Shown: positions 3,192-27,387 of the stretch, one piece after another
How positions within the stretch are numbered: the first letter of the stretch is position 1
How the letters are laid out: each line of letters opens with the position of its first letter
From: Patescibacteria group bacterium
GTDB lineage: Bacteria > Patescibacteriota > Dojkabacteria > J137
DNA: 64,000 nt
Reading direction: 5' to 3'
Assembly: GCA_963169855.1 (NCBI GenBank)
Contig: CAUJCN010000001.1
Coordinates: 81,828-145,827, forward strand
Notes under the pieces: model-generated
Databases searched by the model: none
What the model was told of the DNA's origin: nothing
The model's input: only the letters and a program-made list of their open reading frames with translations
Made by a program: the position numbers and the translations under genes

Positions 3192-4526
3192 TTATCTAAC
3201 TGCTTCACAGCCTTGACCAGGAATTGCTCCTATACAAAGCTTCATAAATATTTTACCGTAGGCTTCTGCAGTCATTCCATCAGGGTTTAAAATTCCTCGC
3301 CAGTATTGTTGCATAGAATTCATGTTCAGTATGATTAAGAATGCAAACAATGCTCCGAAGAAATAAAGTACAAACTTCTTTTGATGCCTTAACCACTTGA
3401 TAAAGTATGCGAATGGCAGTGCAAAGAATATAATAAATTCTGTAAACGCTCTGTGACCAAAAGCAAATCCAAAAGACCAAGCCCACCAAGATGAAACTAT
3501 GTAAATTTGAAGAAGAATCATAGCAGGAATTAGGAATCGGAACTTATCTTTTTCCTTGAACATGAAGTAAATTCCTGGAACTGTTAATAAAAGCATTGGA
3601 GTCCATAGGAATAATCCTTTTCTAAAACTGAATAACACATTGAAGATTTCTGGATGGAAGAAGTCGAAGTATTCTCCTTGATAAGAAAATACTAACCAAT
3701 TTCCTGTTACTAGCTTCCAGTAGAGCATTTGAATAAAGAACACCAGAAATGCCGATAATCCCATTATTAAGAACTGTTTCCAGTATTCTTTGACTATTCT
3801 TCCCAAGCTAAAATTTTTGAATAGCTTATAGGCTATTATCAAGAATAAAAGTCCAACTATTATGTTTGTTTGCCTCACAGTTACAATCAAACCAAAAGTC
3901 AGTCCTAATCTTAAAAAGTAGAATAGACTTTTTTTGTCTAATGTAAAATCATCTATTAAATACAGCAGGTAAGCAAATGATGCGAAACTGAAAATATGGC
4001 TGAATGAAACATCGTAAGTAGAGTAGTGAATAATATTTGTTGTCAAGAAAATCAAACCTAGTGTTACGATAGTAACTTTTTCTGAAAACCTTTTACTCAA
4101 AAACTTCCAAAGAAAGTAGAATCCTACGAGACAAGCAACAATTCCACTTACGAGAACCATAAATTGGTACGGTCCTGCATATTGATCAAATCCACCACCA
4201 AAGAAAATACTGTTTGCTGCATTTGCAATCACATAGCCGGGAGTTTGTAACAATGCGACTCCAATCGGATATTTGTTCAAATAGTTTCCGTTTTCCTGAA
4301 GTAATAATCTACCGGCTGCTTCGTCTTCCCAAGGTTGTGGCAAATCTGCCATTTGGGATTCTCCAGAAATATCAGCATAATGAAAAATTGATGGGAGATA
4401 GGCATAGTAACCCCAGCCATCGGATGAAATTGCAGTCCAGTTAGAACCAAAAGCCTTTAGAAAAAAGGAACCTGAGATTAGAACTATTACGATAAAAATA
4501 AGTAGGTGTCTAAATCTAATTTTCAT
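3192..4526 (-). CDS. Polytopic membrane protein, candidate GT-C-fold glycosyltransferase (ArnT/PMT_2-like); paralogue of 1151..2815
   Basis: About 12 TM helices. Has 'SDGWGYYAY' in the first extracytoplasmic loop and 'WWAWSFGFAFGHRAF' near the C-terminus, both parallel to motifs in ORF 1151..2815. Confidence 0.4.
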   Translation of the reverse strand: MKIRFRHLLIFIVIVLISGSFFLKAFGSNWTAISSDGWGYYAYLPSIFHYADISGESQMADLPQPWEDEAAGRLLLQENGNYLNKYPIGVALLQTPGYVIANAANSIFFGGGFDQYAGPYQFMVLVSGIVACLVGFYFLWKFLSKRFSEKVTIVTLGLIFLTTNIIHYSTYDVSFSHIFSFASFAYLLYLIDDFTLDKKSLFYFLRLGLTFGLIVTVRQTNIIVGLLFLIIAYKLFKNFSLGRIVKEYWKQFLIMGLSAFLVFFIQMLYWKLVTGNWLVFSYQGEYFDFFHPEIFNVLFSFRKGLFLWTPMLLLTVPGIYFMFKEKDKFRFLIPAMILLQIYIVSSWWAWSFGFAFGHRAFTEFIIFFALPFAYFIKWLRHQKKFVLYFFGALFAFLIILNMNSMQQYWRGILNPDGMTAEAYGKIFMKLCIGAIPGQGCEAVR

Positions 4527-5158: not shown

Positions 5159-8100
5159 TTATCGTCCAAGAGAAATCCAGTTAAACTCAACAGGAACTTC
5201 TAAAGCGGCATCTAGAATAATATCGAATGAAGTCTCTGTAATATTTCCAACATAGTAATCAACTCTTCGTCCAATCGGAGATGCTGTAACTACAGGTACA
5301 GTATTGAATGGAGTAGAGAATGTTACAGTCACAAATGTTAATCCGGTTTCAATTGTCGCTACACCTGCAGTATCTTCTGAAACATTTAATTTTCCAAGAA
5401 CTCTAACATTTCCAGAAGCAATCAAGTTTCCTACAGACAGATTACTCAAATCTATCGAAGCTGATCCACCCTGTAATAAAGAAACTGTTCCTTCAAGTGA
5501 AGCTAATCGTGTTTCAACATCAACTAATCGTGCCTCGTGAGTCTGGAATATTGTTAGTGAAGATTGAATGTTATTAATTGTTTGTTGTATTGAAACATTT
5601 GTATTTTGTAAATCTAGTATTGTCGATCTAATTCCTTGAAGATCTGTTGGAACAGCACTCAATGTATTTAAGCTTGCTTCAACAGCATCAACTCTACCTT
5701 CATTTTCGTTAACTTGAACTTCAACATTTTGTAATCGTCCTTCCTGAGTTTGAACAGCATCGGTCAAGATTGCAGACATTAATTCATAGTTAACTCCTTC
5801 AATTCTTCCATCTCTTGAGAATGCTAATCGTGGATCTACTACATTTACTTCTTCCGCAATAAATCCTAAGCTTCTTGAACCATCACTATTCTTTGTAAAT
5901 TGAACTGGTCTTAATCCCATTACTGTATCTAATCCATTGTTTAAATCAGAAATATTACTCTTATATCTTTCAGAAGAAACATTACAAACTCCCGCCTGAA
6001 CAACAATTACTCCTGAGGCATCTGTACAAACGTAACTTGTAGAAGCACCTCCGTTTGTAAGTTGACTTACATCCAATTCTCCATTTGCATTCAAAGACAT
6101 TCTAGCAACAAGGTTTGTAGTGAAATCGATACCGTTATTTACAGTTGTTCCAAGTGTGTAGTTACCACCTAAACCATCTGTCTGATTTCCATCTAACATC
6201 CAGAATGTAAATTCAGAGTCTGTCCAGTTTGCTGCTCCTCCAGCTCCTCCTGATAACAACACATCGCCGATGTTACCTGCGTTACCATTTGCTCTAAGCT
6301 CTCTTTCAAAGAACACATCTCCATTCCAAGTAACATAGAAAGCTGTGCTTCTGGTTAGATCATCTTCTCCGTTTCCAATAATAAATATTTGTTCATTGTC
6401 TGTAATCGCCTCAGTATAAGTTTGAGAAGCATTAGCACCATTTCTAATTGCGTAACTACCCATGATGGTCTGTACATACGTATCACTAACAAAACTACTT
6501 AAAGTTGTGTCCGTACCAGATCCGGTGATGTTACCAATACCGAATACTGTTGCTCCTGGTCCAGTACCTACATTCTGTAATCCCCAAACTGTGTTACCCA
6601 TGCCCGTCACTATATTTTGGCTACCCCACGCTGTAGAAAGAGTAGCAGATGGCGCAACTACATTTTCATCCCCGAATACAGTAGAATTTACACCAGAAGC
6701 GACATTTGACTCTCCCCATGTAGTTGAATTTTGTCCATCAGCAACATTTCCTAAACCAAATGCTGTTGCTTGTGAAGCGTTTGCCAAAGTGTTTGCTCCA
6801 AAAGCTGTTCCGTTTTCAAAAACAGCACCTGGATCAACATTTGTTTGATCTCCCCATGCCATACTATTCAGCCCTCTTGTTTGTGTTAGGTTACCAAATG
6901 CAGTATTATTTGAGCCAATTGCTTGAGCACCATTACCGAATGCTGTTGAATTTGTTCCTTGAGCCACTGTTTGGAAACCAAATGCAGTAGATTGTTCTGC
7001 CATAGATTGTGTTCCTCTTCCAAATGCTAATGAATTATCTCCACTTGCTGAAGTTTGATATCCGAAAGAAGTAGCTTGATCTGCTTCAGCTCTAGTGTCA
7101 AATCCAAATGCTGTTGCATTATCTACATTAGCTGTAAAGAATCCAGCAAGAGTACTTGTTCCCCATGCTGTTGATGCAAATGATTGAGAACCCACAGTAG
7201 TGAATCTACCAAATGCTGTAGAAGTATCTCCCAATGCCTCAGAAGTAAATCCAAATGCTGTTGAGTTTGTTCCTTGGGCCACTGAGTTTTCACCCCATGC
7301 TGTTGATTGGTCACCTTGCGATTGTGTTAGTAGACCAAATGCAGTAGAGTTTATTCCGTAAGCCTGTGATTGATTTCCAAATGCAGTTGCTTGATTTGCC
7401 TCCGCTTGAGTTTGATTTCCAAATGCCAAAGCGTTTGCAACATTCATAGTCATTACCCCAGCAGAAGTATCTGTACCAAAAGCCGTAGATGCTAATGAAT
7501 TTACTCCTACATTTGAAATTCTACCAAATGCTGTTGCATACTCTCCAAGAGCCTGTGTTGTAAATCCAAATGCTGTTGAGCCTATTCCTTGTGCCAGTGT
7601 ATCATCTCCAAATGCAGTCGAATTATCATTTAAAGCTTGGGTAGAAAATCCAAAGGCTGTTGAATTAAGTCCCTGTGCTGACGTTTGGTTTCCAAATGCT
7701 GTTGCCTGATCATCTTGTGCTTGAGTTTGGTTTCCAAATGCAAGTGCATTCTCTACACCCGGTGCCGAAGTTCCTGCTTCAGTAGCTGTACCAAATGCAG
7801 TTGAATTAGTTGAACCAAATCCAACTATCGAATTTTGTCCAAAAGCTGTTCCATTATCACCCAATGCTTGTGTCTGTGTTCCAAATGCTGTTGCTGAAAT
7901 TCCACTAGAAAGCGTGTCTTCTCCCCATGATGTTGATTGGTCTCCGTTAGCCACTGTTCCAAAACCGAATGCAATTGAATTTGTTGCTTGAGCCTGAGTT
8001 TGAGTTCCAAATGAAGTAGCTCCTGGACCTGAAGCAACGGTTGTATTTCCCCAAGCTGTGGCATTTATATCTTGAGCAAAGGAACCTGTACCCCAAGCAG

Positions 8101-14100: not shown

Positions 14101-15757
14101 CATTAACAATAGTTCCTCCTGCAATTGGTTGATTATCACTAACTCCGTTAACATCTGTCGTGAAGCCTGTTGCAAGATCCAAGTTAAAGTTAACTGAGTT
14201 AATAATATTTGCTGTATCTGAAATTCCGTTTACAGTTGAAGTCATTACATTACCTAGTGAGTCTAAAACATTAGTAGTTGCTCCACTTAGTACAGTAGCA
14301 ACTGACTGATTCGCTGGATTACCTCCTGCGTCATAACCTAGAAGATTAACAATTGTTCCTGCAGGAGTTGCTACAGTATCTGCCACGCCATTCACTGTTG
14401 AAGTGATTCCTCCAGCTTGAGTCCAAGTTAATGTATTAGTTGTATTTGCTGCCAAAATGCTACCAATTGTTTGATTTACACCATTTCCACCAGCATCGAA
14501 TCCAAACACATCAGTGATTGTTCCTGCTGGTATTGCCTGTGAAGATGCTATTCCATTTACTGTTGAAGTAAATCCTGTTGCTAAATCTACAGTTAAAACA
14601 TTTGAATTTATTATGTCGTCAAAACTTACAACACCATTTACTGTGCTTGTTGCAACATTTCCTGCTGTTGTAAAAACATTAGTAGTTGCTCCAGTTAAAA
14701 TTGAAGAAACTGTTTGATATGCTGGATTACCCAATGTATCGAAACCTAGTAGTTCAGTCAAAGTTCCTGCAGCTAAAGCTTCATTAGCAGCAACGCCATT
14801 TACTGTTGATGTAAATCCTGTAGTTCTATCAAGATTAAAAAGGTTTGTTAAGGGTAGAGCAGAGGTGTCAGTACAAGCCCAACTTACTCCGTTAAACATG
14901 TATACCTGATCTAAGGCACAGGCAGTTAGGCCATATGTGACTGTGTTTCCAGCTGTTGCAACTGAAATCGGACCAGTTGAAGCAAGGGTTATTGAAGGAC
15001 CAGTTTCACCATTAACATCTGTAATTCCTGCGCCTACAGCTGCTGGTAAACAAACAAATGCTGTTCCGTTCCAAGAAAGTCTTTCTGTTGGTAGACAGGT
15101 AGGAGCATTTACAGAAACTGTCCCTGTAGTTGTAATTGGGCCTCCAGTCAGACCGTTTCCAGTATTTATAAGTGTAACTCCTGTAGGTAAAGATACCGAG
15201 TTTCCGTTAGAAATCGATAGAATATTCCCAGCCAAACCTAATGTTTGGCTATCATTATCAACTCCACTCCCAGATCCTACTAAATCAGGTAAACAAACAA
15301 ATGCTGTTCCTGTCCATGATAACTTTTCATTGAAAGTACAGGCTGGAGAATCCACAGAAAATTGATTTGTTGTTAATTCTAGACCTTCACCTGATGTATA
15401 CGTATTGGATCCTCCTGTTCCTTCTGTGGAACATTCCCAAGTATTAGTAACTCCACTCCACCTTAATATTTCGTTAGTAGAACATACTTTGTTAAAACTA
15501 ACTGTATAACCGTTATTAACCTGATTAACTGTAATTAAATCTCCTCCTTGAACAGGTGATGAATTTCCGCCTGGATTTACTGTGGTATTACCAGTTGAAA
15601 ATGCTCCCCATCCTAAGAGAAGTATAAGGATAATAATTAAGACAAGGGTTACAACATACCAATTTCGTAGGAGTTTAAAGCGGTCGAGAGATACAAGTTC
15701 ATAAACACTGAACTTCTGCTTAGTAGGTTTTGTTACAGAATCATCTGAATGGTCCAT
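5159..15757 (-). CDS. Giant (3532 aa) type-II membrane-anchored surface fibre protein. It has Cys-pair modules, about 213-aa tandem modules, two roughly 1-kaa mega-repeats carrying YadA-head-like 14-residue 'NSTAFG' repeats, and a C-terminal phage tail-fibre intramolecular chaperone (peptidase S74-like) domain followed by a coiled coil and a terminal β domain.
   Basis: Single intact ORF. N-terminal 'WYVVTLVLIIILILLLGWGAF' TM anchor. Repeated 'xSTAFGxxTxAxGxx' 14-mers. C-terminal 'YKSNISDLNNGLDTVMGLRPVQF...LGFIAEEVNVVDPRLA...GVNYELMSAIL' matches the endosialidase chaperone (S74) signature, and a heptad-rich coiled coil follows. Confidence 0.85.
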   Translation of the reverse strand: MDHSDDSVTKPTKQKFSVYELVSLDRFKLLRNWYVVTLVLIIILILLLGWGAFSTGNTTVNPGGNSSPVQGGDLITVNQVNNGYTVSFNKVCSTNEILRWSGVTNTWECSTEGTGGSNTYTSGEGLELTTNQFSVDSPACTFNEKLSWTGTAFVCLPDLVGSGSGVDNDSQTLGLAGNILSISNGNSVSLPTGVTLINTGNGLTGGPITTTGTVSVNAPTCLPTERLSWNGTAFVCLPAAVGAGITDVNGETGPSITLASTGPISVATAGNTVTYGLTACALDQVYMFNGVSWACTDTSALPLTNLFNLDRTTGFTSTVNGVAANEALAAGTLTELLGFDTLGNPAYQTVSSILTGATTNVFTTAGNVATSTVNGVVSFDDIINSNVLTVDLATGFTSTVNGIASSQAIPAGTITDVFGFDAGGNGVNQTIGSILAANTTNTLTWTQAGGITSTVNGVADTVATPAGTIVNLLGYDAGGNPANQSVATVLSGATTNVLDSLGNVMTSTVNGISDTANIINSVNFNLDLATGFTTDVNGVSDNQPIAGGTIVNVLGFDAGGVAVNETIASILTGNTTNVFTTAGNVATSTVNGVVSFDDIINTNVLNLVGSNLESVVNGVTSNTVDLSTLPCVATSSFFCQDGNLFGTTGTLGTNDNNDLVLETNGLERLRVMAGGNVGIGSNNPATLLSNASGSITDQGGVGQHPVGIFWQIGGPITPGYTATFHNGTPGVGANGLLVRNETAIGTSIFTANNGGVDRFTIFGNGNILMSSYPNTRDDAPAVLNILYTDAAGNLLSKDASTFLSGATTNVLDSLGNTMTSTVNGVSDTATIINSNVFSLNLAGGFTSNVNGVSSNVGVPVGVISNLLGFDAGGNPVNSSLANLPCDPTGDFFCQDGNSFGTSGVLGTLDNFDQTFIRNAVSIARITATGFDPEVDNTFDLGTLTNRWASLELGPGSLNITSTTGTLGAGANYTSLNQGFASPGSATIHTTNFGTNTAGNFGGMAFLSDRNIGQGVEQAFYFATKQNLSASDEVFQIENDLFGIPTPLVTVMGDGRVGILSTAPTALLSIDQGTTGLTGNSGLSMMGVTLDPALSVLGEGRMYFNSALGGFQCSENGAAYFDCFGAGGVNSVTAGLGLVNSGTGVDPIIDAQIQNGLSFSGDFIEWGGTLLHNTTITNNGFLPTFDSGSLTGTKGLQVTGDLTVTGVIDPIALMFSDPGIGVTDYQIGVTTVGNSRPIFVSNSVNRTDAFQVRKEDDTATVISVDTLNNRLGVGFNNTTPHSTLSTNGSFSVNYEDSSGGSINLDELNQTVVLTGPAVSANLPSAGGLAGRIYTIKNESGSTSGVNPMGLETIDGLSGAYALDDMNAVTLISDGANWHVIGSTGSAGIISITAGDGLSDTGTLTNPILNVLADNGLQVDAATDRVRLGGAVGSPEATNASLLFNTEVPLAGSSIGWSGQGNFGIGVAAPQEKLHVMSAGDPSNVLFEGTLNGMAVPTVFSSTTRMYWAPGRGAFRAGTATMGQWDNFNVGDNSAAFGLDTTASGANSSAFGQSTSATAAGASAFGVNTTASGINSAAFGFNTQATNQGATAFGQNTQANGMNSIAAGNGTFAFGTNSIAFGQSSAVDMSSENTIAGGNTNVAIGASSNSALFGQSNNLNGASAAIVAGVGNTVSGATSFTIGEANTSTGQRGIVFGQNNTTVPTTNNSIVGGQGNNNVDAENSAVFGVTQTVSGQRVVVGGQFNQVNFSNDVAVFGQGNQVQNQGSITGGQANQNFSNFSLVGGMMNQVSGLQHFAAGQQNQIMMGSENAATWGFSNEVVNSYGTAFGNNNISSGTGATAFGQNTTAQGEYSTSFGQGNTASGNNSLAFGQNTQATSFGATSFGNNTQANGPFSVAAGTDNITGSISSIVYGSSNNIDMGSDSTLVGGNLNQSQTSVNSILSGQGNTMTGSNRSLGIGQGNSITGTDSITTGNTNTNGGQNSIVFGSSNTLMPFGVNTILGGSNNNNIGVNDGAIFGFNQMAAGARIVAGGQSHQIFGADDSAVFGQANQVTGQASLVSGSSNTVPAFYSLVGGSGNNIQGSTNFGAGNMNNINFNASSAGVWGFSNDVSADYATAFGNNNNATGIGSTSFGNTTSAFGSYATSLGVGTSAQGDGAIALGEGTIASGQNSFAGGFTSTASDREAFAFGQNAQASGTMSVAFGLQNISSGTASFVGGNNSQAMGDSSFAYGNVVQANANFATAFGNGATANGFSSIAMGSQVTAGGTVSIAMGDGATASGERAVAFGESTESQGFAQTTIGRFNTVSGNSLAFDQSDQAFIIGNGTSDFARNNAFSVGWDAKMTLYGGFAPAVSPFGAGSMYFDTLSNTFQCSENNGAWFSCFGGGSLVGGDGIDITGSTISALADNGLQVDPVADRIRLGGAVGSPEATNASLLFDTEVPLAGNSIGWSGIGNFGIGVADPQEKLHIISNGDPTNVLFEGNLSGDPVPAVFSSTTRMYWAPGRSAFRAGTANGFQWGDANVGDYSTAFGLDTTASGTGSMSWGQQNEATGQNSTAWGTGSFAQDINATAWGNTTVASGPGATSFGTQTQAQATNSIAFGFGTVANGDQSTSWGEDTLSSGISATAFGTQTQALGDNGTAFGQNSIVGFGSTNSTAFGTATEAGTSAPGVENALAFGNQTQAQDDQATAFGNQTSAQGLNSTAFGFSTQALNDNSTAFGDDTLAQGIGSTAFGFTTQALGEYATAFGRISNVGVNSLASTAFGTDTSAGVMTMNVANALAFGNQTQAEANQATAFGNQSQAYGINSTAFGLLTQSQGDQSTAWGENSVAQGTNSTAFGFTSEALGDTSTAFGRFTTVGSQSFASTAWGTSTLAGFFTANVDNATAFGFDTRAEADQATSFGYQTSASGDNSLAFGRGTQSMAEQSTAFGFQTVAQGTNSTAFGNGAQAIGSNNTAFGNLTQTRGLNSMAWGDQTNVDPGAVFENGTAFGANTLANASQATAFGLGNVADGQNSTTWGESNVASGVNSTVFGDENVVAPSATLSTAWGSQNIVTGMGNTVWGLQNVGTGPGATVFGIGNITGSGTDTTLSSFVSDTYVQTIMGSYAIRNGANASQTYTEAITDNEQIFIIGNGEDDLTRSTAFYVTWNGDVFFERELRANGNAGNIGDVLLSGGAGGAANWTDSEFTFWMLDGNQTDGLGGNYTLGTTVNNGIDFTTNLVARMSLNANGELDVSQLTNGGASTSYVCTDASGVIVVQAGVCNVSSERYKSNISDLNNGLDTVMGLRPVQFTKNSDGSRSLGFIAEEVNVVDPRLAFSRDGRIEGVNYELMSAILTDAVQTQEGRLQNVEVQVNENEGRVDAVEASLNTLSAVPTDLQGIRSTILDLQNTNVSIQQTINNIQSSLTIFQTHEARLVDVETRLASLEGTVSLLQGGSASIDLSNLSVGNLIASGNVRVLGKLNVSEDTAGVATIETGLTFVTVTFSTPFNTVPVVTASPIGRRVDYYVGNITETSFDIILDAALEVPVEFNWISLGR

Positions 15758-16442: not shown

Positions 16443-17123
16443 TTAAAACATGGTAAATGGAGAATAGAGAGAGAACACTAAACTATCGTCTTCAGGATCT
16501 TGCGATACTTTAAATAACGGATTAGCTACTATAGAAGTCATTTGATTTGTGATGTTCCAAAACTTTTCCAACTCTTCTCGTTTCAAAACACCTACATTTA
16601 CTCTAACATGCTGTGATCTGGGTAAATCCACTGATGATGAATGTCTGTCCGCAGGGTTGCAAGAATTAAAGTATATATACAAAAGTTTTTTGAGAATTTC
16701 ACTTATTTGAATAGGTATATCTTCAAAAAGATATTGAGATTTATCAATTCCATAGAAGACAGATTTTTTTGTACCTCTTGGATTAAAAGGTTCTGGTAGT
16801 ACAAATAAAAAAGGTATGCATATCTCATCGATTTCAAATTCTATAACGCATACTCTAATTGACCTCATCTGACCCTCTATGCTTATCTGAACCGTAGGGA
16901 CGAAATAAGAAAGATAATCATATTCATAAAATAATTTTTGGATAAAATCAGAAGGAAGGCCATCTTCGCTAAAAACAGACTGATCCTTCAGTTGAATATA
17001 GATAGTAGCTTTTGTTCTGTCAATTTCTAGCTTCCCCAAAGAATTTTCATGCGTGAATCTTACTCCTTTTGGATCAGTACTCGGCAGAATAAATCGATTA
17101 TAAGTTGTTTCTTCAGTTCCCAT
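16443..17123 (-). CDS. Hypothetical protein (226 aa)
   Basis: Intact ORF on the same strand as the fibre locus. No recognisable motif. Confidence 0.5.
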   Translation of the reverse strand: MGTEETTYNRFILPSTDPKGVRFTHENSLGKLEIDRTKATIYIQLKDQSVFSEDGLPSDFIQKLFYEYDYLSYFVPTVQISIEGQMRSIRVCVIEFEIDEICIPFLFVLPEPFNPRGTKKSVFYGIDKSQYLFEDIPIQISEILKKLLYIYFNSCNPADRHSSSVDLPRSQHVRVNVGVLKREELEKFWNITNQMTSIVANPLFKVSQDPEDDSLVFSLYSPFTMF

Positions 17124-17992: not shown

Positions 17993-20900
17993 CTATAAAG
18001 CTATCCAGTTAAATAAAATATCCGATGTTGATACTGGTTGTATTACAATATCAAAACCATTTTGATTTACATTTTCTATTCCATAGTATACAGCATTTAT
18101 TCCAACAGGTGTAATAGTTACTGATGGAATTTTTGTTAATGGAGTAGAGAAGTTTACACGAATTGAATTGTTGCCTCCCGCAATAGTAGCATTTCCACTT
18201 AGTGCCACCGGAATAGATTGAATCAGGTTTTCTAAATCGGAAATCCTTTGGTTTATTGCGGTTATATCAAATGAATTTGTTGCGAGTGAATCAATATCAT
18301 TTTTTATATTTGTTAGTGATGTATTCAAATCAGATGCCATAGTTTGTAACTCAGAAACATCAGTTCCGTCTAATTGTGTTTTTAGTTGATCGATCTCAGC
18401 TTGAATTCTAATATTATCTTCATTTAATTCTTGAATTGCTTTAACCAAGTAAGGGGTAAATCCGTTTACTTTAATTTGAAGATATCCGTCAGCTCCTACT
18501 TTAACTAAATCAGGTACAACCGATTGAACTTCTTGAGCAATAAATCCTAACTTCAATTCGTTCGAAGGATCGTTGTTCATATAGTAATTTCGCACCTGCA
18601 ATTGCGATATTGTGTCTAAAGCCGAAGTAGAGTAGTCAGAAATAGTATTTTTCAATCTCGAGTCCGAAGTACATCCAAATGAACCAAAAGCACCATCTGG
18701 TGCCACGGTACAAGTACCCGAACTATTTTCAAAAGTAGCTACTGTGGATAAAGCAGGGTCTAGGAAATCTCCAACATGTAATTGACTTGTAGGCGACACA
18801 TTATGTATACCAACGTTCCCATTTATTCCGTTAACAAACACATGTACAGTATTATTTGTACCCAAAGTTAATGGATATGTAGCCATGGTGTTTACATTAA
18901 ACGACTCAGTTCCTCCAAGCGATCCGTTTAAAGTAGAGTTTGCTTGAATAAAACCAATTCCTGCATTGTTATTTGAGAACATCATCGATGAGGCCGCGTT
19001 TAGTCCTGAATTGTTGTTTCTAAATTCTACAAACCCTTGCGCATCTACATCTTGCTCAACTACAAACATATAGTTTGGTCCTGAAGTTCCTATTCCTACA
19101 TTTCCATTATTTGCTATTCGCATTCTTTCTTGTCCATTTGTGAAGAATACTGTAGAAAACGCAGCAGAACCAAGTGTTAAGCTGCCTGCAGAATCGATAG
19201 TTATGTCGTTATTAGTAGTGATCAGCGATGCGTAATCTCGTGCGTTTAAAAACAAGTTTCCTGAAAGTGTGTTTACTGAAAGATCTCCGTTAGAATTAAG
19301 TTCGTTATTTATTGTGCCCGTAAAGTCTAACATGCTACGGCCAACGTCTGTCCACAAATCAAAGCCAGCCGATGTGGCATTGTCGTGAATATTTAGAGCG
19401 ACTACAGGTCCACCAGTTACAGTTTGAATTCTCACGGCTCCTGAATCTGCTAAAATTGTTCTTCCAACACCTGGTCCTCCAAAATCGTATGAATCATCCA
19501 AAGTTCCACCGCCAATTCCTAACCATCCATTCGTTGAAAAATCCTGTGTCTTCACATACAAATGTTCTCTATTTGTTACACCATCAATTCTAAAAAACAA
19601 ACTTCCGCTATTTGCCAAATGAACACCCTCTGGGTCTCCAATTCCAACTAGCTGATCTATGGTATTGGCACCTGTTCCAGATAACCTGAGTGTTCCTGGT
19701 CCAGATGTATTTGTAACATTCATTATTGAAGAACCTGCACTAGATCCTATTACAAATGTATTGACACCTTGTTGTCTGAATATCGTACCAGTATCGTTAG
19801 AAAGCAATATCTCATCGGTTACTCCTTGGTATGTAAGGTTAGCAAAGTTTGTATTAGGCATATCTAGAAATCTTATTCCACCACCGTTTGGTGAAGTAAT
19901 TAATTCAAAACCCGAGCCATTAGTATTGTACCCTTGAATAATGTTTTGATTACTCACAATATTTTGAGTTGACACAAGTAGAGCTTCATTTACACCATTA
20001 ATTTCTACAGCTCCAGAATCAACAGTTATTATTCTACCTGCACCAGGTCCACCAAAATCGTATGCATCATCTAAAGTTCCTCCTGCTCCAGCACCGAGAG
20101 CCACCCACCCATTAACACTTGCATCTGTTGTTTTTACGTATAGTTGTTGACTGCCTCCAACTCCATCCATTCGAAAGAATACACTTCCGCTATTCGCAAG
20201 GATGCCTCCTTCTGGATCTCCCGTACCAATTAACTGATCTACAAAAGCAGCACCTCCTGTAGTTCCTAATCTTAAAATCGTAGGATAAAATGGCCCATTA
20301 CTATTAATTGTTAGAACAGGATCGTTCGCCAAGCCAGCCGTTGACTGTATTATTGTACTATTGCCAGTCATTCTAAAAACGTTATTAGCCTGATTTGTTA
20401 TAGAGAAGTTATCAAAAGAACCATCGTATACGGTTCGAGCGACGTTAGCTCCAAAACTATCAGAGAACCATAGACCTCCGCCGTTTACGTAGGTTTGCAA
20501 AGCAAATCCGGATCCATTTGGGTTTGAAGCTGTAAAAATGTCTTGATTACTAGCATTGTTTTGCGTTGTTGCGTGTATAGCATTTGATGTTGCATTAAGC
20601 TCAACAACTCCCGAATCTACATCAATAATTCTCCCTGCCCCTGCGCCTCCAAAATCGTATGCATCATCCAGAGTTCCTCCAGATCCTCCTGAACCCAACG
20701 CTACCCAACCGGTATTGAAGCCATTATTTGTAGTTTTTACATACAGTTGTTCGTTCGCCCCACCATCAGTTCGCATGTAAATACTTCCTTGGTAACCAAA
20801 TAGAACATTTTCTGGTGTACCAGCACCAGAATAGATCTCAGTTGTACCACCATTATTATTGAAGTTCATAAAGGAATTTTGAGTTTGACCAGCATTTGTA

Positions 20901-23275
20901 ATCTGTAGTATTCCGTCATGTTGTAAAGAGTTGCTTAAATACTGAAGGTTGTTTCCTTGATTAAACATTGTCCAACCAGCACCAGTTATACCGTTCCTTA
21001 ACGAGAAATTATCCACGATTCCTTGGAAATACATATCGTAATAATTTGCTGCACCGTTGAACAATTCAGAGGCAAATGTCAATCTGACTCCATCAGAATC
21101 ATCTCTTATTAAGAACGAATTATTTGTACCTCCTGTTTGTGTATAGAAGAGAGTATCTGAAAATGCTCCTGCAGCGTTTAAGAATCCCGGGCCAGAAGAA
21201 GTAAGTCTCAAACCTTGCACATCTACTTGTAAGTCGTTTCCAGCAGCTGGGCCACCGAAGTTATATGCATCTTGCAGAGTGCCACCACCACCTCCTCCAC
21301 CTCCTAGCTGTACCCAACCAGTGTTAGTTCCTGCTCCAGTTTCTTTAACCCACATCGGCATAGCACCAGATCCAGAAACATCGTAGTAAACACTACCCAT
21401 AAATCCGTCCACAATTCCATTCGGATCTCCATTGCCGACATTGTGAGTCATTGATCCAAAACTATTTCCCATCGAAACAACTCCATAAGGATTGGTTACA
21501 TCATTGTTTTGAATGAATACGGAACCAGTTGTAGATGTTGTAGCAGATGCGCTAATGCCAGTCTGAGCTGTTGAGTAAAAGTTAAGTGACGATGTTGGTC
21601 CTGAAGCAGTAAGACTAACACTAAACGGATCAAAAGATAATGTTCCGAAATCTGAACCTCCTCCGTCTGAAAGTCCTATATTAAAGAATTCGTTTCCTGG
21701 AGAGTCTGCAAAGATTTGATATCCGAATGTTGTAGAAGTGAAATTATTCACATCTACTGAATAAATCATTCCAGTTCCTGTAAATGGACCAAAATCCAGT
21801 CTACCCATAGATACGCCAGCCCCTGCTGTGTTAATTCCAACCCCATCTCCAACAACACTGAATGCTGGGTCATATCCAAAAGGAACAGCGCCTATTGAAT
21901 CTATTAATTCTACGGAACCTGAATCTGTAAATATTGTTCGTCCAGCACCTGGGCCTCCAAAATCGTATGCATCATCAAGAGTTCCACCAGATCCACCTCC
22001 TGCTCCAAGAGCTACCCAACCAGTGTTACTACCATCAGTTGTTTTAACGTACAATTGCTGAGAACCACCGACTCCATCAGTTCTAAAGAAAACGCTTCCA
22101 CTATCTGCATTCTCTACACCTTCCGGATCACCAGTACCAACCAATTGTGTAATTCCACTTCCAGTAGCTGGGTCTAATGATAATACTCTTGATGGATTAG
22201 CCATATTTTGATTTTGTATCAAAACAGCACCTGCGTTTGACTGAGCCTGACCTCTAATTCTTACAGTATCGTTTACAGAAGTTATGAATAAATCCTGATC
22301 TGATTGAATATCCATACCACTTCCGTTTTCAGATTGTATCTGCATTAATCCATTCATCATGAGAATGTTTCCATATCTTGTAGCCCCATCAGAAAATCCT
22401 AATTGGTAAAATTCAGCACCTGGGAATGCAGAGAAAGAATTAAATCCGTAATATCCGTTTGTGAAATTGTTTACATCATCGGCAAACAGTAAGATACTTC
22501 CATCATCACCACCTTGAACATCCATTTTTGCCATCGCAATACCGTTCAGGCTTGAATTGTTTACTGTACCATCTCCGACAATTACAAAAGAAGGATCGTA
22601 TCCTGCAAATCCTCCTGTCTTAACATCGGTAAACTGCACAGCTCCTGCATCTGTAGTAACAATTCTACCTGCTCCTGGACCACCAAAGTCATATGCATCA
22701 TCCAATGTTCCACCTCCGGCAACAGAAACACATGATAATACTGTACCATTCCACGAAAGAGTTTCTCCTAATGCACAGGTAGGAGCATTCAAAGAAATTA
22801 CTCCAGTAGTTGTAATCGTTCCGCCATTCAATCCGTTACCAGCCGTAATACTTGTAATTCCAGAAGAGCCTCCAACTGGTAGGTTTACAGTATTACCGTT
22901 TGTAATTCCTAAAGTATTACCTAATATGTAAAGAGTTTGCTGATCGTCATCATTCGTCGGGTTAGTTGGTGTAGTGGTTCCAGTTACTTCGTCTACACAA
23001 ACAAAGTTCGAACCATCCCATTGAAGTTTATCTGTCGCTTGGTTACAAACGGGAGCACTTAGGGATATAGTTCCTGTAGTTGTAATCGTACCTCCACTTA
23101 ACCCAGCACCTGTTTGAATTCTAATATTTGTACCTCCACTGTTTGATAGATCACCGATTTGATTTGTTAAGTTAGAACGAAGAGAACCTAATACTAATAC
23201 AATTATTAGCGTGATTATTCCAAAACCTAAAATGAACCATTTATTAATACCTATTTGGTTTTCGACATTATCCAT
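17993..23275 (-). CDS. Giant (1760 aa) type-II membrane-anchored surface fibre protein with six 'GGTLDDAYDFGGPGAGR'-initiated modules and a C-terminal peptidase S74-like intramolecular chaperone domain
   Basis: N-terminal 'WFILGFGIITLIIVLVLGSL' TM helix. Two Cys-pair modules ('SAPVCNQATDKLQWDGSNFVCVD'). Six repeats each end in '...GS(V/L)FFR(T/M)DG..QLYVKT.D...GWV.LG'. C-terminal 'TSDSRLKNTISDY...LKLGFIAQEVQSVVPDLV' chaperone signature followed by a coiled coil and a β domain. Confidence 0.85.
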   Translation of the reverse strand: MDNVENQIGINKWFILGFGIITLIIVLVLGSLRSNLTNQIGDLSNSGGTNIRIQTGAGLSGGTITTTGTISLSAPVCNQATDKLQWDGSNFVCVDEVTGTTTPTNPTNDDDQQTLYILGNTLGITNGNTVNLPVGGSSGITSITAGNGLNGGTITTTGVISLNAPTCALGETLSWNGTVLSCVSVAGGGTLDDAYDFGGPGAGRIVTTDAGAVQFTDVKTGGFAGYDPSFVIVGDGTVNNSSLNGIAMAKMDVQGGDDGSILLFADDVNNFTNGYYGFNSFSAFPGAEFYQLGFSDGATRYGNILMMNGLMQIQSENGSGMDIQSDQDLFITSVNDTVRIRGQAQSNAGAVLIQNQNMANPSRVLSLDPATGSGITQLVGTGDPEGVENADSGSVFFRTDGVGGSQQLYVKTTDGSNTGWVALGAGGGSGGTLDDAYDFGGPGAGRTIFTDSGSVELIDSIGAVPFGYDPAFSVVGDGVGINTAGAGVSMGRLDFGPFTGTGMIYSVDVNNFTSTTFGYQIFADSPGNEFFNIGLSDGGGSDFGTLSFDPFSVSLTASGPTSSLNFYSTAQTGISASATTSTTGSVFIQNNDVTNPYGVVSMGNSFGSMTHNVGNGDPNGIVDGFMGSVYYDVSGSGAMPMWVKETGAGTNTGWVQLGGGGGGGGTLQDAYNFGGPAAGNDLQVDVQGLRLTSSGPGFLNAAGAFSDTLFYTQTGGTNNSFLIRDDSDGVRLTFASELFNGAANYYDMYFQGIVDNFSLRNGITGAGWTMFNQGNNLQYLSNSLQHDGILQITNAGQTQNSFMNFNNNGGTTEIYSGAGTPENVLFGYQGSIYMRTDGGANEQLYVKTTNNGFNTGWVALGSGGSGGTLDDAYDFGGAGAGRIIDVDSGVVELNATSNAIHATTQNNASNQDIFTASNPNGSGFALQTYVNGGGLWFSDSFGANVARTVYDGSFDNFSITNQANNVFRMTGNSTIIQSTAGLANDPVLTINSNGPFYPTILRLGTTGGAAFVDQLIGTGDPEGGILANSGSVFFRMDGVGGSQQLYVKTTDASVNGWVALGAGAGGTLDDAYDFGGPGAGRIITVDSGAVEINGVNEALLVSTQNIVSNQNIIQGYNTNGSGFELITSPNGGGIRFLDMPNTNFANLTYQGVTDEILLSNDTGTIFRQQGVNTFVIGSSAGSSIMNVTNTSGPGTLRLSGTGANTIDQLVGIGDPEGVHLANSGSLFFRIDGVTNREHLYVKTQDFSTNGWLGIGGGTLDDSYDFGGPGVGRTILADSGAVRIQTVTGGPVVALNIHDNATSAGFDLWTDVGRSMLDFTGTINNELNSNGDLSVNTLSGNLFLNARDYASLITTNNDITIDSAGSLTLGSAAFSTVFFTNGQERMRIANNGNVGIGTSGPNYMFVVEQDVDAQGFVEFRNNNSGLNAASSMMFSNNNAGIGFIQANSTLNGSLGGTESFNVNTMATYPLTLGTNNTVHVFVNGINGNVGIHNVSPTSQLHVGDFLDPALSTVATFENSSGTCTVAPDGAFGSFGCTSDSRLKNTISDYSTSALDTISQLQVRNYYMNNDPSNELKLGFIAQEVQSVVPDLVKVGADGYLQIKVNGFTPYLVKAIQELNEDNIRIQAEIDQLKTQLDGTDVSELQTMASDLNTSLTNIKNDIDSLATNSFDITAINQRISDLENLIQSIPVALSGNATIAGGNNSIRVNFSTPLTKIPSVTITPVGINAVYYGIENVNQNGFDIVIQPVSTSDILFNWIAL

Positions 23276-23472: not shown

Positions 23473-26400
23473 TTAGAGTGTAGCAAAAGCCATCCAGTTA
23501 AAGTCTATGTCAGTTACAGCAGCAGAAAATAGTTTGATCTTAAAACCGAAAGCCGTAACCTCATCAATAAAGTATTCTCCAACTGAAGTATTTGAAGCCA
23601 AAGTTGCAGTAACTATTGGAGCAGAAGTGAGTGGTTTACTAAAAGTTACAGCAATTTCAGATGTTCCACCTAGTATCTTTACTTTTCCGATATTGTTTGC
23701 TGAGAATGTAACTTGGTCTTTAAAATTTACAACTCCAGCAAAAGAAGCACTTAAAAATTCAGAAGTTTCTGCAATCTCTGTTTCTATATTTTCGCTTTCT
23801 AATTCAATTTCCTCTAACCCAGGATACTCTATATTACTTAAAATTTGAGATTTAAATTCTTCATAACTTAATTTGAAATCGTTTAGTTGAGATGTTAAAT
23901 CCGCAAGATTCTGATTAATCCCAGATACATTAACTTCGTTATCATTTTCTGGGAGTGAACCTAACTCTTCCAATTTAGTCTCGATATCTGAAATTACTTT
24001 TTGTTGTTCTTGGATGGAATTTGTTAGTAGAGCAGAGATCAACTCATAGTTAACTCCTTCGATTTCTCCGTTTCGTGAGAATGCCAATCTTGAATCAACT
24101 ACTGCAACTTCCTCCGCAATGAATCCTAGACTTGGAGTTCCCGTAGGATCGAATATAAAACTAACAGGTCTCAAATTCATAAGTTCTTCTAATCCAATTT
24201 CCAAATCCTGAACATCTGATTTATATTTACCAGAAGAAACATTACATACACCGGCTTGAGCTATCATTCTTCCACTCGCATCTAAACATAAATACTGCGT
24301 AGAAGGATTTACAGAACTTACCATACCAGTTAGGTCTATATTCCTTGATTGATGAATTCTAATAACATTTGTACCTGCAATTTGGAAGAACACATCTCCA
24401 TCAACAATACTACCGTCTCCTGATGTTATAACCACGGCTCCTCCAATGCTAGCTGCTGAGCCTCCTGCCGCTATGCTAATATTACCTCCCTGACTTGCTG
24501 ATCCAGCACCTGCTTGTAGCGTAATACCTCCTCCAATTCCTGTACCGCTAGCACTACCCCCCTGCACAAAGAATTCACCTGCAGTACCATTTACAGAAGC
24601 ACCTAGATTAAAGAATGCACCTCCTCCAGTTCCTGTCACATCTGCAGAACCTCCATTGTATGTAAATCGACCAGCAGAATCACTTGAACCTACGGAACCT
24701 CCTCCTGTATTTAATGTTATGTCCCCTCCAGCACCTGCACCTGCTATACCCCCATTTCCAGTATTAATATTTATTCCACCAGCATTTCCTACAGAGTTAG
24801 CTGTTCCAGTAGCAATTGTAATTGTTCCAGAACCAGTATTACCGTTCCCTGTATACATGTTAATATTTCCGGATCCATTAGCTACAGCCGCTGATCCTGT
24901 AGCCATGTTTAAGTCACCTGGAGTTCCAGAGAATGATGAACCTGTTGAGATATTAACGCTTCCCGCTAAACCAACTGTTGCACTACCCCCGTTTATATTT
25001 ACATTTCCTCCTCCCCCCGGTGTGAAAGTGTTATTGTTTCCTCCATTGATATTGACTGTCGCAGCCTGAGAAACCGAAGTATCTGTTCCACCTAATTGAA
25101 TTGATGCACTACTTAGTCCTCCTGCCGAGAAAGATGAGTTAATACTTACATCGCCTCCAGAATTTTGTGTTGAACCAAACAATTGAATACTCGCTGACCC
25201 AATGGTCGAAGATGTATTAATACCTGCCGAAAGCCAAACATTACCGTTTGTTGCAAACGGGTTACTCGATTGACCTCCATTAATATTTATATTTCCTCCA
25301 CTGTATGAAGCACCTGCCGTTAGATTAACATTTCCAGCTGTACCTAAGGCATTTCCAGCGTTGGAAGAATAAATATTTACGCTACCACTGAGCATATCCG
25401 CAAAGCCTGTACTTATATTTACTGTGCCACTAGAACCTGTTCCAGCAGATGAACCTGTTGAGATCGATATCTGACCTGAGTTTCCATTACTAAGTCCATT
25501 CGCAGAACCTGTAGACATAAATATATCCCCAGTCTGGTTTCCGGAAACTCCATTTGCACCGGTATAGATACTTACACTACCACCATCCCCTGAACCATCT
25601 CCGTTACCAGAACCTAAAGCTGCGCTCCTACCACTCCCATTAGAACCAACTAATGCCTCACCCCCATTGACTACAATTCCAGATGCCGATACGAATAAAG
25701 TACCGTAAATATCAGTAGTTGATGAGCCTGCTCCAACAACCATTATATTATTTCCTCCACCTGCATCAGCATACTGAAGGAAACCGTATCCAGGTGTTGT
25801 TGTAAAGTTATCTATATCATTAGAGAATAGAAATGCTGTTGCCTCCGCCCCAGGGAAAGCAGGGTTTATATTTCTAACTATCCCAACTCCAGCTGTCTGT
25901 GAGAAACCTGGTGCCGAACCATCTCCAACAACTTTAAATGCAATTCTTTCATTAAGTGGCACGTTTGCCGAAGGAGATGTTCTTAATTCAACAGCACCTT
26001 GATCCAGATTAATTATTCGGCCAGCTCCTGGACCACCAAAATCATAAGCGTCATCCAAAGTTCCGCCGCCTCCTCCAACGTCCCCAATCGGAACCCATTG
26101 ATTATTATTTACCCCTGCAGTTCCAATATTTGCCCATAATACATTAGCACCTGTTACACCTGTCTGAGAAGCAACATATAAAGATCCCGCATAACCATCG
26201 ACAAATCCATTAGGATCGAGTTCACCTCCTGCAGTAAATTTAATACATCCATAAACTGGAACAGATGGTGCACACAAGTCTAAAATATCATACCCAGATG
26301 TAGATGCACCTATAAGTCTTATTGGCGAGTTACCTGGATCTGTATTCGTACTTCCACCGTAAATGTAAACTTGTTCAATAGCCTGCAAACTAAAATTATT

Positions 26401-27387
26401 ATTTGTCGATAACCCTAATGGTCCACCCGAAGATAAGTTGGTTTCCCCTGAATCAGAAAATTCTAATGCAGATACATTATTAAATGGGGAATCAGCTATT
26501 CCTATTACAAATACATCGTTTAGAGGGTTGATTGGATCATGTTGATATATAAGTGAACCTTGTGACCCAGAAGTATATGTTGATGCATCGGGTCCAAATA
26601 CCTGAATGTAAGCTTCTCCCCCTGGGAAAGTTAAGTTCGTGAAGCCTATACCAGATCCTGCTGTCGTTGTAGTTCCATCTCCTAAAATTTCAAAATCATT
26701 AGCCACTGTTGGGAATATTGTTCCTTGTGTAATAATAGATACAGCTCCAGCGTCAGCAAAAATAGTTCTTCCTACCCCTGGTCCACCAAAATCATACGCA
26801 TCATCCAGAGTTCCACCTCCTGCTGTAGAAATACATGATAGAACTGATCCATTCCATGTTAGTGTTTCGCCAAATGCACAAGCTGGTGCGTTTAGAGCAA
26901 TAGTACCAGTTGTTGTTATCACACCTCCCGATAGTCCAGCCCCTGCTGTAATACTTGTAATACCTGAGGTTCCACCTATTGGAATTGTGACTGTGTTTCC
27001 ATTTGAAATTGTTAAATTTCCTCCTGAATAGAATAGAGTCTGATTGTCAGTCCCTGTAGTAGTAGTAGTTGATGTACTACCAGTGATTTCATCAACACAA
27101 ATAAATGAAGTTCCGTTCCATTGAAGTTTATCGTTTGTTTGATTACAAATTGGTGCGTTTAAAGAAATTGTTCCAGTGTTTGTGATCGTTCCTCCCGACA
27201 AACCAACTCCTGTTTGAATTTGAACATCATTTGATTGGGGAGGAATTGAAATATTATTTAAGTCAGTAGCTATCTTTCCTCTAAAAGAAGACAGCGACAA
27301 AATAACAACAACTACAATTATTCCAGTTATCAAGATGAACCATTTGTTTAATCCAATCTGATTTTGTTGTTCCTCAAGTTTATCCAT
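23473..27387 (-). CDS. Giant (1304 aa) type-II membrane-anchored surface fibre protein with a Gly-rich 'GxxNIxTG' repeat region and a C-terminal peptidase S74-like intramolecular chaperone domain
   Basis: N-terminal 'WFILITGIIVVVVILSLSSF' TM helix. Cys-pair modules and two to three 'GGTLDDAYDFGGPGxGR' modules. A Gly/Ser/Asn-rich repeat region of about 280 aa. C-terminal 'YKSDVQDLEIGLEELMNLRPVSF...LGFIAEEVAVVDSRLA...GVNYELISALL' followed by a coiled coil and a terminal β domain. Confidence 0.85.
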   Translation of the reverse strand: MDKLEEQQNQIGLNKWFILITGIIVVVVILSLSSFRGKIATDLNNISIPPQSNDVQIQTGVGLSGGTITNTGTISLNAPICNQTNDKLQWNGTSFICVDEITGSTSTTTTTGTDNQTLFYSGGNLTISNGNTVTIPIGGTSGITSITAGAGLSGGVITTTGTIALNAPACAFGETLTWNGSVLSCISTAGGGTLDDAYDFGGPGVGRTIFADAGAVSIITQGTIFPTVANDFEILGDGTTTTAGSGIGFTNLTFPGGEAYIQVFGPDASTYTSGSQGSLIYQHDPINPLNDVFVIGIADSPFNNVSALEFSDSGETNLSSGGPLGLSTNNNFSLQAIEQVYIYGGSTNTDPGNSPIRLIGASTSGYDILDLCAPSVPVYGCIKFTAGGELDPNGFVDGYAGSLYVASQTGVTGANVLWANIGTAGVNNNQWVPIGDVGGGGGTLDDAYDFGGPGAGRIINLDQGAVELRTSPSANVPLNERIAFKVVGDGSAPGFSQTAGVGIVRNINPAFPGAEATAFLFSNDIDNFTTTPGYGFLQYADAGGGNNIMVVGAGSSTTDIYGTLFVSASGIVVNGGEALVGSNGSGRSAALGSGNGDGSGDGGSVSIYTGANGVSGNQTGDIFMSTGSANGLSNGNSGQISISTGSSAGTGSSGTVNISTGFADMLSGSVNIYSSNAGNALGTAGNVNLTAGASYSGGNININGGQSSNPFATNGNVWLSAGINTSSTIGSASIQLFGSTQNSGGDVSINSSFSAGGLSSASIQLGGTDTSVSQAATVNINGGNNNTFTPGGGGNVNINGGSATVGLAGSVNISTGSSFSGTPGDLNMATGSAAVANGSGNINMYTGNGNTGSGTITIATGTANSVGNAGGININTGNGGIAGAGAGGDITLNTGGGSVGSSDSAGRFTYNGGSADVTGTGGGAFFNLGASVNGTAGEFFVQGGSASGTGIGGGITLQAGAGSASQGGNISIAAGGSAASIGGAVVITSGDGSIVDGDVFFQIAGTNVIRIHQSRNIDLTGMVSSVNPSTQYLCLDASGRMIAQAGVCNVSSGKYKSDVQDLEIGLEELMNLRPVSFIFDPTGTPSLGFIAEEVAVVDSRLAFSRNGEIEGVNYELISALLTNSIQEQQKVISDIETKLEELGSLPENDNEVNVSGINQNLADLTSQLNDFKLSYEEFKSQILSNIEYPGLEEIELESENIETEIAETSEFLSASFAGVVNFKDQVTFSANNIGKVKILGGTSEIAVTFSKPLTSAPIVTATLASNTSVGEYFIDEVTAFGFKIKLFSAAVTDIDFNWMAFATL

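Follow-up and report, generated by a model that had tools for sequence, protein, structure and literature searches.

Do the long fibre-like proteins encoded at this locus remove their own C-termini, and if so at which bond? The stretch of DNA analysed here (hereafter the window) comprises 64,000 nucleotides, i.e. positions 81,828 to 145,827 of contig CAUJCN010000001.1 (assembly GCA_963169855.1, Patescibacteria group bacterium), and its minus strand carries three open reading frames (ORFs), denoted A, B and C, of 3532, 1760 and 1304 residues, respectively. A previous sequence-only reading of the same DNA had proposed that each protein ends in an endosialidase-type chaperone module, released by self-cleavage at a conserved serine. 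We find that the C-termini of A, B and C are genuine Peptidase_S74, or intramolecular-chaperone, modules with an intact Ser–Lys dyad. The proteins are described best as cell-surface fibres of a Saccharibacteria-type bacterium of the candidate phyla radiation (CPR), composed of an anchor helix, a long Lys-poor fibre rich in Gly, Ser, Thr and Asn, the S74 module, a coiled coil and a lectin-fold domain. We propose, with a probability of roughly 0.7, that the C-terminal part is an assembly cassette that registers three chains, templates the folding of the fibre, and would then remove itself by Ser–Lys autoproteolysis, in the manner established for T5 pb1, MyRF and the Bdellovibrio fibre Bd3182.

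Searches with the C-terminal fragments of the three proteins against PF13884 gave matches that all exceed the gathering score of the family (22 bits) and all start from profile position 1, which falls on S3261 in A, S1537 in B and S1051 in C (see Table 1 for individual scores). The proposal of endosialidase-type modules is borne out in this respect for all three proteins, with the dyad at equivalent positions. Judged from the sequences, the S74 match of the three C-termini is far beyond chance. The module is 31–37% identical among the paralogues (36% for A versus C over the whole C-terminal module), and both the Ser and the Lys at +5 (K3266, K1542 and K1056) form invariant columns. The “cutting-hole” strand G-x-I-A-[QE]-E-V is kept as LGFIAEEV in A and C and as LGFIAQEV in B, and the column equivalent to Y615 of MyRF holds Phe in A, Tyr in B and Phe in C. 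At +1 and +3 of the motif, B carries the canonical Asp and Arg, whereas Ser takes the place of the Asp in A and C, and C also has Lys for Arg at +3. Apart from the predicted cut sites, the only occurrences of the pattern S-x-x-[RK]-x-K in the three proteins are single chance copies in A and in C, both within the Lys-rich cytoplasmic N-terminus. The last 272 residues of A contain three Lys, K3266 among them. A six-frame scan of the window with the hidden Markov models (HMMs) of the family matched ORFs A, B and C and nothing else.

The invariance of the dyad extends to distant relatives. A single-sequence search of a 5.8-billion-protein database returned one homologue only, and profile methods were needed. 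A profile search together with a full HMMER scan, which covered 1.84 billion representatives and gave 141,285 matches at E ≤ 1e-3, yielded 272 S74 domains from 260 homologues. Ser1 and Lys6 occur together in 271 of these 272 domains. Position 2 of the motif is Asp in 178 and Ser in 83 of them, position 4 is Arg in 203 and Lys in 21, and position 5 is Leu (140), Tyr (71) or Phe (35). On these counts the “SSERYK” of A and the “SSGKYK” of C represent a common subtype, and the “SDSRLK” of B is canonical. As a side observation, and with phylogeny uncontrolled, there appear to be two S74 subtypes, one combining SD with GxIAQEV and Leu at +4, the other SS with GxIAEEV and Tyr or Phe at +4; the window holds both, B being of the SD type and A and C of the SS type. 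A residue other than Asp at +1 paired with Glu in the strand is also seen in a T5-like fibre (8HQZ), which reads “SGIEYK” together with “GVIAEE”, i.e. with Gly at +1 and Glu at +3.

Comparison with solved structures leads to the same assignment. A profile of the module, built from 37 sequences, aligned Ser and Lys with their counterparts in 8JOV (E 1e-16) and in S16 gp37 (6F45, E 3e-15). MyRF's ICA (intramolecular chaperone auto-processing) domain (7DC3, dyad S587/K592) was matched at E 2e-10, with the string “ADLRAK” of the S587A variant aligned, followed by the T5-like L-shaped fibre (8HQZ, E 1e-7, “SGIEYK” aligned) and the GA-1 chaperone (3GUD, E 2e-3), the chain of which starts with “SDERHK”. 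An AlphaFold 2 (AF2) model of the last 271 residues of B showed a mean predicted local distance difference test (pLDDT) score of 76.6, with 87–93 in the S74 core and 44–63 in the region upstream of the cut. Foldseek identified MyRF ICA 7DC3 as the best structural match of this model (E 1.7e-4, template-modelling (TM) score 0.66), and endoNF was weakly recovered at rank 42. The model of A has a mean pLDDT of 73.8 and the same layout.

The register of the cut follows from systems in which the bond is established. MyRF is cleaved at P586|S587 as identified by mass spectrometry, both S587A and K592A are inactive, and the two residues correspond to S911 and K916 of endoNF; Q639 and I637 are among the residues holding the “cable”, and Y615 is found at the cutting hole (PMC8326128). 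T5 pb1 is cut between Thr1263 and Ser1264, with Lys1269 activating the Ser (PMC4690869). In the fibre protein Bd3182, self-cleavage at the Ser has been demonstrated: the mature tip in the crystal structure ends at A781, the catalytic S782 is the next residue, and the S782A variant is uncleaved (PMC10769870). MyRF, T5 pb1 and Bd3182 all cut the bond that precedes the catalytic Ser. We therefore predict cleavage at NV|SSERYK in A, GCT|SDSRLK in B and NV|SSGKYK in C, and all three proteins are probably cleaved on the N-terminal side of this residue. Because the Lys sits at +5, the first Ser of the “SS” pair is the catalytic one in A and C; the second occupies the usual position of Asp. One phmmer alignment to S16 gp37 places its gaps such that the second Ser would be the nucleophile. 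This register is ruled out by the Ser–Lys spacing of five in 271 of the 272 domains, and it is also excluded by single-Ser homologues such as “TSALKYK”.

With the register in place, several details of the sequence-only reading can be corrected. The three peptides that it quoted are present exactly in the 3532-, 1760- and 1304-residue ORFs, and the sites correspond to NVSSERYKSNISD (A residues 3259–3271, window 5983–5945), GCTSDSRLKNTISD (beginning at B residue 1534, window 18676–18635) and NVSSGKYKSDVQD (beginning at C residue 1049, window 24243–24205), all on the minus strand. None of them lies within 5159–5800, where they had been placed: the A site is found at 5945–5983, the B site at 18635–18676 and the C site at 24205–24243. 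As the range 5159–5800 corresponds to A residues 3320–3532, it holds the coiled coil and the terminal β domain of A and no site. The motifs had further been described as lying upstream of LRPV/LGFIAEEV, which holds for A and C, whereas the equivalent segment in B is LQVR/LGFIAQEV. Cleavage after the Ser, as had been assumed, is at odds with the solved or tested cases T5 pb1, MyRF and Bd3182, all cut before the Ser, and with GA-1 3GUD, which starts at the Ser. In A and C the proposed catalytic Ser was accordingly off by one and the proposed bond by two residues; in B the Ser was right and the bond off by one. The catalytic Ser expected from an alignment with known modules is indeed present and aligned to MyRF, the T5-like fibre and GA-1, albeit in A and C it is the first Ser and not the second. 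Finally, the predicted released pieces comprise 272 (A), 224 (B) and 254 (C) residues instead of the estimated loss of about 200, while the predicted location of the coiled coil and the terminal β domain downstream of the site is reproduced by the AF2 models of A and B.

For trimerisation, the order of folding, the cleavage itself and the dissociation of the released piece, we infer the following course. Outside the cell, three trimer-forming C-terminal modules would align their chains in register, and the trimerised modules would nucleate folding of the fibre from the C-terminus. Upon formation of a correct trimer, the dyad (S3261/K3266, S1537/K1542 or S1051/K1056) would cut the bond N-terminal to the Ser, and the whole 272-, 224- or 254-residue cassette would be freed. 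The new distal end of the mature fibre (...C-N-V or ...G-C-T) would be located 2–3 residues past a probable disulfide loop. Cys residues occur in the fibres of A, B and C as pairs only, spaced 8–17 residues apart, and are absent from the released parts; the last pair stops 2–3 residues short of the predicted cut in all three proteins. In the AF2 model of B, the strands near this pair are formed by model residues 31–36 and 43–46. Among the 272 homologous domains, 107 have a Cys at −2 or −3 relative to the catalytic Ser. This pattern suggests that the paired Cys form disulfide loops, one of which would cap the tip of the mature fibre. The composition also changes at the predicted cut, with Lys depleted to 0.4–0.6% in the mature fibre parts versus 1.1–4.7% in the released parts and Glu enriched on the C-terminal side.

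Several points weigh against this proposal. The Pfam S74 score of C is marginal (24.4 versus 22 bits), and full-length C yields no Pfam match at E ≤ 0.01, i.e. the S74 match is lost. Foldseek with the model of A gave no S74 match, the best being lectin-type with E about 0.01; as only lectin-type matches were obtained, the evidence for the S74 module of A is sequence-based. The AF2 models are monomers, and both active-site geometry and trimer formation are outside their reach. The phi29 appendage is the one case in which the model has the Ser as the final residue of the mature protein (PMC4690869), which is why the exact bond is not beyond doubt. No conserved upstream Arg folding sensor similar to that of T5 (Arg1250/Asp1239) was found within ~15 residues of the site in A and B; MyRF likewise operates without T5-like stalk sensor contacts (PMC8326128). 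Lastly, the conserved lectin-fold domain finds no explanation in a piece destined to be discarded, and the fragment might be retained or have a function of its own.

The missing Arg sensor, together with the non-canonical residues of A and C (no Asp at +1 in either, no Arg at +3 in C), might indicate that the S74-like module is kept uncleaved and serves in trimerisation and folding only, the full-length protein with its lectin tip being the mature fibre. We regard this as very unlikely. Conservation of the dyad in 271 of 272 domains is difficult to account for in proteins so poor in Lys unless the dyad is catalytic. Moreover, the SS/E subtype is abundant (83 domains), the non-Asp/E pattern resembles that of the T5-like fibre, T5 pb1 being a proven self-cleaver, and all tested S74 domains with an intact dyad self-cleave. 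The residue following the Ser co-varies with the GxIA[QE]EV strand, with D/Q in 160, S/E in 79 and mixed combinations in five domains, a count that is uncorrected for phylogeny and compatible with a relocated carboxylate.

The terminal domain raises a different alternative. Over its ~85 residues, Foldseek pairs the domain of B with the agglutinins HAA (4Q56) and HPA (2CE6/2CCV) at E about 3e-4 and that of A with HPA at E about 0.01; SLL-2 and discoidin II are matched as well. PF09458 (H_lectin) matches the terminal domain in 59 out of 63 homologues (best E 6e-10), the domain folds confidently (pLDDT 90–97), and among the 149 best representatives 136 have it together with S74. Being located at the far end of an N-terminally anchored fibre, it takes the usual position of an adhesin. 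Cleavage might thus take place while the trimer of coiled coil and lectin-fold domain stays docked on the tip as an adhesive head, or is shed as a soluble carbohydrate-binding factor. This appears unlikely on balance: in T5, K1F and Bd3182 the chaperone departs, and its removal is required for ligand binding. The copies in the window reach 23.2, 16.5 and 13.1 bits and so fall short of the H_lectin gathering threshold of 24. When the profile is aligned to discoidin II, a gap of 8 residues opens in a loop region, the loop being shorter here. Furthermore, Foldseek pairs the domain of B with the C-terminal β-sandwich of the tailspikes Pam1, phi297, LKA1 and Sf6, where the same fold is a purely structural trimerisation domain.

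A variant of this idea, which we consider quite unlikely, is that the S74 cut acts as a maturation switch, converting one product into an anchored fibre with a disulfide-capped tip and a free or docked coiled-coil H-type lectin that would bind host glycans. If true, a phage-derived protease would serve CPR episymbionts such as Saccharibacteria in directing adhesins at the bacteria that host them, and relatives with two or three S74 sites would be true polyprotein fibres. Such relatives exist. Homologues P0148, P0177, P0127, P0126 and P0211 contain 2–3 complete S74 domains per chain, with S...K intact and 300–1100 residues apart (catalytic Ser at 231, 553 and 873 in P0148), and would be polyprotein-like fibres if every site cuts. 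Seventy-two homologues extend past the lectin-fold domain by 50–265 residues of acidic or Pro/Thr-rich low-complexity sequence, whereas A, B and C end at the domain.

The assembly cassette that we favour is joined to a fibre with a predicted membrane anchor. The N-termini of A, B and C consist of a short polar segment followed by a single strongly hydrophobic helix; in A, this helix has a Kyte–Doolittle mean of 2.93 over 19 residues and is preceded by Lys/Arg. The helices are predicted to be signal-anchor-like membrane anchors. Pfam further detected YadA_head in A (13 stretches, 247 bits) along with a weak match to an ice-binding β-roll, the region reported for these matches being residues ~1846–2064. 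An autotransporter anchor domain, i.e. a C-terminal β-barrel of the YadA type, was not found in A by Pfam, the C-terminus being formed by S74 and the lectin fold. Head repeats of YadA-type trimeric adhesins thus seem to have been put to new use in a CPR fibre whose anchor is at the N-terminus.

Since S74 domains are best known from phages, A, B and C could also be tail-fibre genes of a phage or prophage, in line with the endosialidase paradigm on which the sequence-only reading had drawn. Comparison of the B model with viral models (BFVD) gave 312 S74 matches at E ≤ 0.001, of which the top-ranked 50 are all from phages and mostly annotated as S74, intramolecular-chaperone or tail-fibre proteins, and some homologues are named “tail fiber domain-containing protein” in their sources. 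Nonetheless, this explanation is hardly credible. The flanking genes are housekeeping ones, for MetRS, CysRS, EF-G, TypA/BipA, Mfd, an AddA-like helicase-nuclease and an RNase J-like protein, and a HemN-like radical SAM enzyme is also encoded in the window. No phage structural protein was matched when ten ORFs, namely the neighbours of the fibre genes together with those for MetRS and the RNase J-like protein, were scanned against PHROGs. All three proteins start with a membrane-anchor helix, and synteny of the cluster extends to another Saccharibacteria genome, with homologues across CPR phyla. The context of A, B and C is a cellular chromosome, not a phage; a phage or prophage origin is rejected on the evidence of the neighbouring genes, and the three fibre genes belong to the chromosome of a CPR bacterium and encode proteins anchored in the membrane by their N-termini.

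Among genomes, the nearest is GCA_964650085.1, a metagenome-assembled genome (MAG) from an uncultured member of Candidatus Saccharibacteria, which contains A-, B- and C-like genes and a fourth paralogue. All of them keep the motif, and the predicted released pieces are of conserved length. Beyond this genome, relatives come mostly from CPR phyla (Paceibacterota, Woesebacteria, Moranbacteria, Peribacteria, Dojkabacteria and WWE3), and further ones occur in Saprospiraceae and other Bacteroidota and in a few archaeal MAGs. The coordinates of all features discussed are compiled in Table 1.

Table 1. Fibre ORFs of the window and the features of their predicted N-terminal anchors, cut sites and C-terminal cassettes
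Feature	Window position	Strand	Basis
ORF A, giant fibre protein, 3532 residues	5159..15757	−	ORF list; Gly/Ser/Thr/Asn-rich, Lys 0.5%
A N-terminal hydrophobic helix, residues 35–55, predicted signal-anchor	15593..15655	−	Sequence; topology inferred
A Cys pair C3244...C3258, stopping 2 residues short of the predicted cut	5984..6028	−	Sequence
A catalytic motif S3261-S-E-R-Y-K3266; predicted scissile bond V3260|S3261	5960..5977	−	Pfam profile position 1, invariant S/K columns
A Peptidase_S74 core, residues 3261–3309	5831..5977	−	PF13884, E 1.1e-9, 38.8 bits; AF2 pLDDT 82–88
A two long predicted helices, residues ~3324–3422, coiled-coil region	5492..5788	−	AF2 helices 115–157 and 160–213; weak DUF7310 coiled-coil match
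A terminal H-type-lectin-fold β domain, residues 3450–3532	5162..5410	−	PF09458, E 7e-5, 23.2 bits; pLDDT 86–97
ORF B, fibre protein, 1760 residues	17993..23275	−	ORF list; Peptidase_S74 at residues 1537–1592 (Pfam)
B N-terminal hydrophobic helix, residues 14–34	23174..23236	−	Sequence
B Cys pair C1522...C1535, adjacent predicted strands just before the cut	18671..18712	−	Sequence, AF2
B catalytic motif S1537-D-S-R-L-K1542, canonical SDxRxK; predicted scissile bond T1536|S1537	18650..18667	−	
B Peptidase_S74 core, residues 1537–1592	18500..18667	−	PF13884, E 1.2e-13, 51.5 bits, full profile 1–58; pLDDT 87–93
B predicted helices, residues ~1603–1686, coiled-coil region	18218..18469	−	AF2 helices 114–146, 151–175 and 183–197
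B terminal H-type-lectin-fold domain, residues 1686–1760	17996..18220	−	pLDDT 90–96; Foldseek; weak PF09458 match
ORF C, fibre protein, 1304 residues	23473..27387	−	ORF list; S74 match from C-terminal fragment alone
C N-terminal hydrophobic helix, residues 17–37	27277..27339	−	Sequence
C Cys pair C1034...C1048	24244..24288	−	Sequence
C catalytic motif S1051-S-G-K-Y-K1056; predicted scissile bond V1050|S1051	24220..24237	−	
C Peptidase_S74 core, residues 1051–1095	24103..24237	−	PF13884, E 3.7e-5, 24.4 bits
C terminal H-type-lectin-fold domain, residues 1221–1304	23476..23727	−	Terminal-domain HMM 129.9 bits; weak PF09458 match

Some features of the surrounding cluster should be noted separately. 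Compared to its orthologue in the Saccharibacteria MAG (L001:1859–7147), B is 95–99% identical at residues 900–1600 and 56–85% identical in the N-terminal 900 residues, a mosaic pattern that suggests recombination or uneven constraint. Between B and A, the minus strand carries two ORFs at 17217–17951 (244 residues, with a hydrophobic helix) and 16443–17123 (226 residues), for which no Pfam or PHROG match was obtained. ORFs like this pair occupy the corresponding spots in the related genome (L001 7195–7935 and 8185–8748), and the two may be accessory factors of the fibre cluster. The G+C content of the fibre-gene block (window 4001–28000) is 0.38–0.415 versus about 0.34–0.35 elsewhere, and its GC skew is strongly negative, both of which are probably due to Gly/Ala/Thr-rich coding on the minus strand.

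What is already known is that S74 self-cleaving fibres exist in non-phage bacteria (PMC10769870). What sets A, B and C apart is a CPR host, a membrane anchor at the N-terminus and the large size of the piece predicted to be released, with its coiled coil and lectin-fold domain; our searches of the literature on S74 with H-type lectins, Patescibacteria or Saccharibacteria gave no description of a cassette of S74, coiled coil and lectin fold. In practical terms, the analysis provides predicted mature ends for three of the largest surface proteins of this Saccharibacteria-type episymbiont, which are useful for modelling, expression and the raising of antibodies. Phage-type S74 quality control, known from phages, MyRF and Bdellovibrio, would also operate in the membrane-anchored giant fibres that occur widely across CPR phyla. 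A functional trimer of the released lectin-fold domain would bear on host recognition by ultrasmall episymbionts; if the cassette is only a folding nucleus, the result is an ordinary though useful annotation.

Among known systems, the phage C-terminal intramolecular chaperone domains (K1F endoNF 3GW6, T5 pb1 4UW8, GA-1 gp12 3GUD and S16 gp37 6F45) share the Pfam family with A, B and C, as well as the dyad spacing of five, the G-x-I-A-[QE]-E-V strand and the subsequent helix. In contrast, the phage modules comprise ~130–150 residues, end after the helical part and belong to virion proteins without membrane anchors. MyRF ICA (7DC3) is similar in that S587/K592, R590 and the aromatic residue equivalent to Y615 align, and in being both membrane-tethered and S74-processed. 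However, MyRF is a eukaryotic transcription factor with its anchor C-terminal to the ICA, so that the cut frees the N-terminal part, whereas A, B and C are anchored N-terminally and the predicted cut would free the C-terminal part. H-type lectins and tailspike β-sandwiches have the fold of the terminal domain in common, which is known as a trimer-forming unit; here, the domain is found downstream of a predicted self-cleavage site, and carbohydrate binding is putative. Trimeric autotransporter adhesins such as YadA share the YadA_head repeats with A and a long, trimeric adhesin-like stalk, although A is anchored at the N-terminus and carries the S74 cassette at the C-terminus, with no YadA β-barrel anchor found.

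The closest tested analogue is the mosaic adhesive trimer (MAT) fibre Bd3182 of Bdellovibrio bacteriovorus, a representative of the S74 subgroup of these fibres (Caulton et al. 2024, PMC10769870). Like A, B and C, it is a chromosomal, non-phage, long surface fibre with an S74 chaperone/protease C-terminus and the S-x-x-x-x-K motif. The latter is written SDxxxK for Bd3182, with the Asp shared by B alone, whereas A and C carry Ser at +1. A, B and C differ from Bd3182 in their uncleaved-looking N-terminal anchor helix and in a length of up to 3532 residues, and they are predicted to release 224–272 residues, including an additional long coiled coil and the H-type-lectin-fold domain. The hosts differ likewise, as A, B and C belong to a lineage of CPR episymbionts and Bd3182 to a diderm predator.

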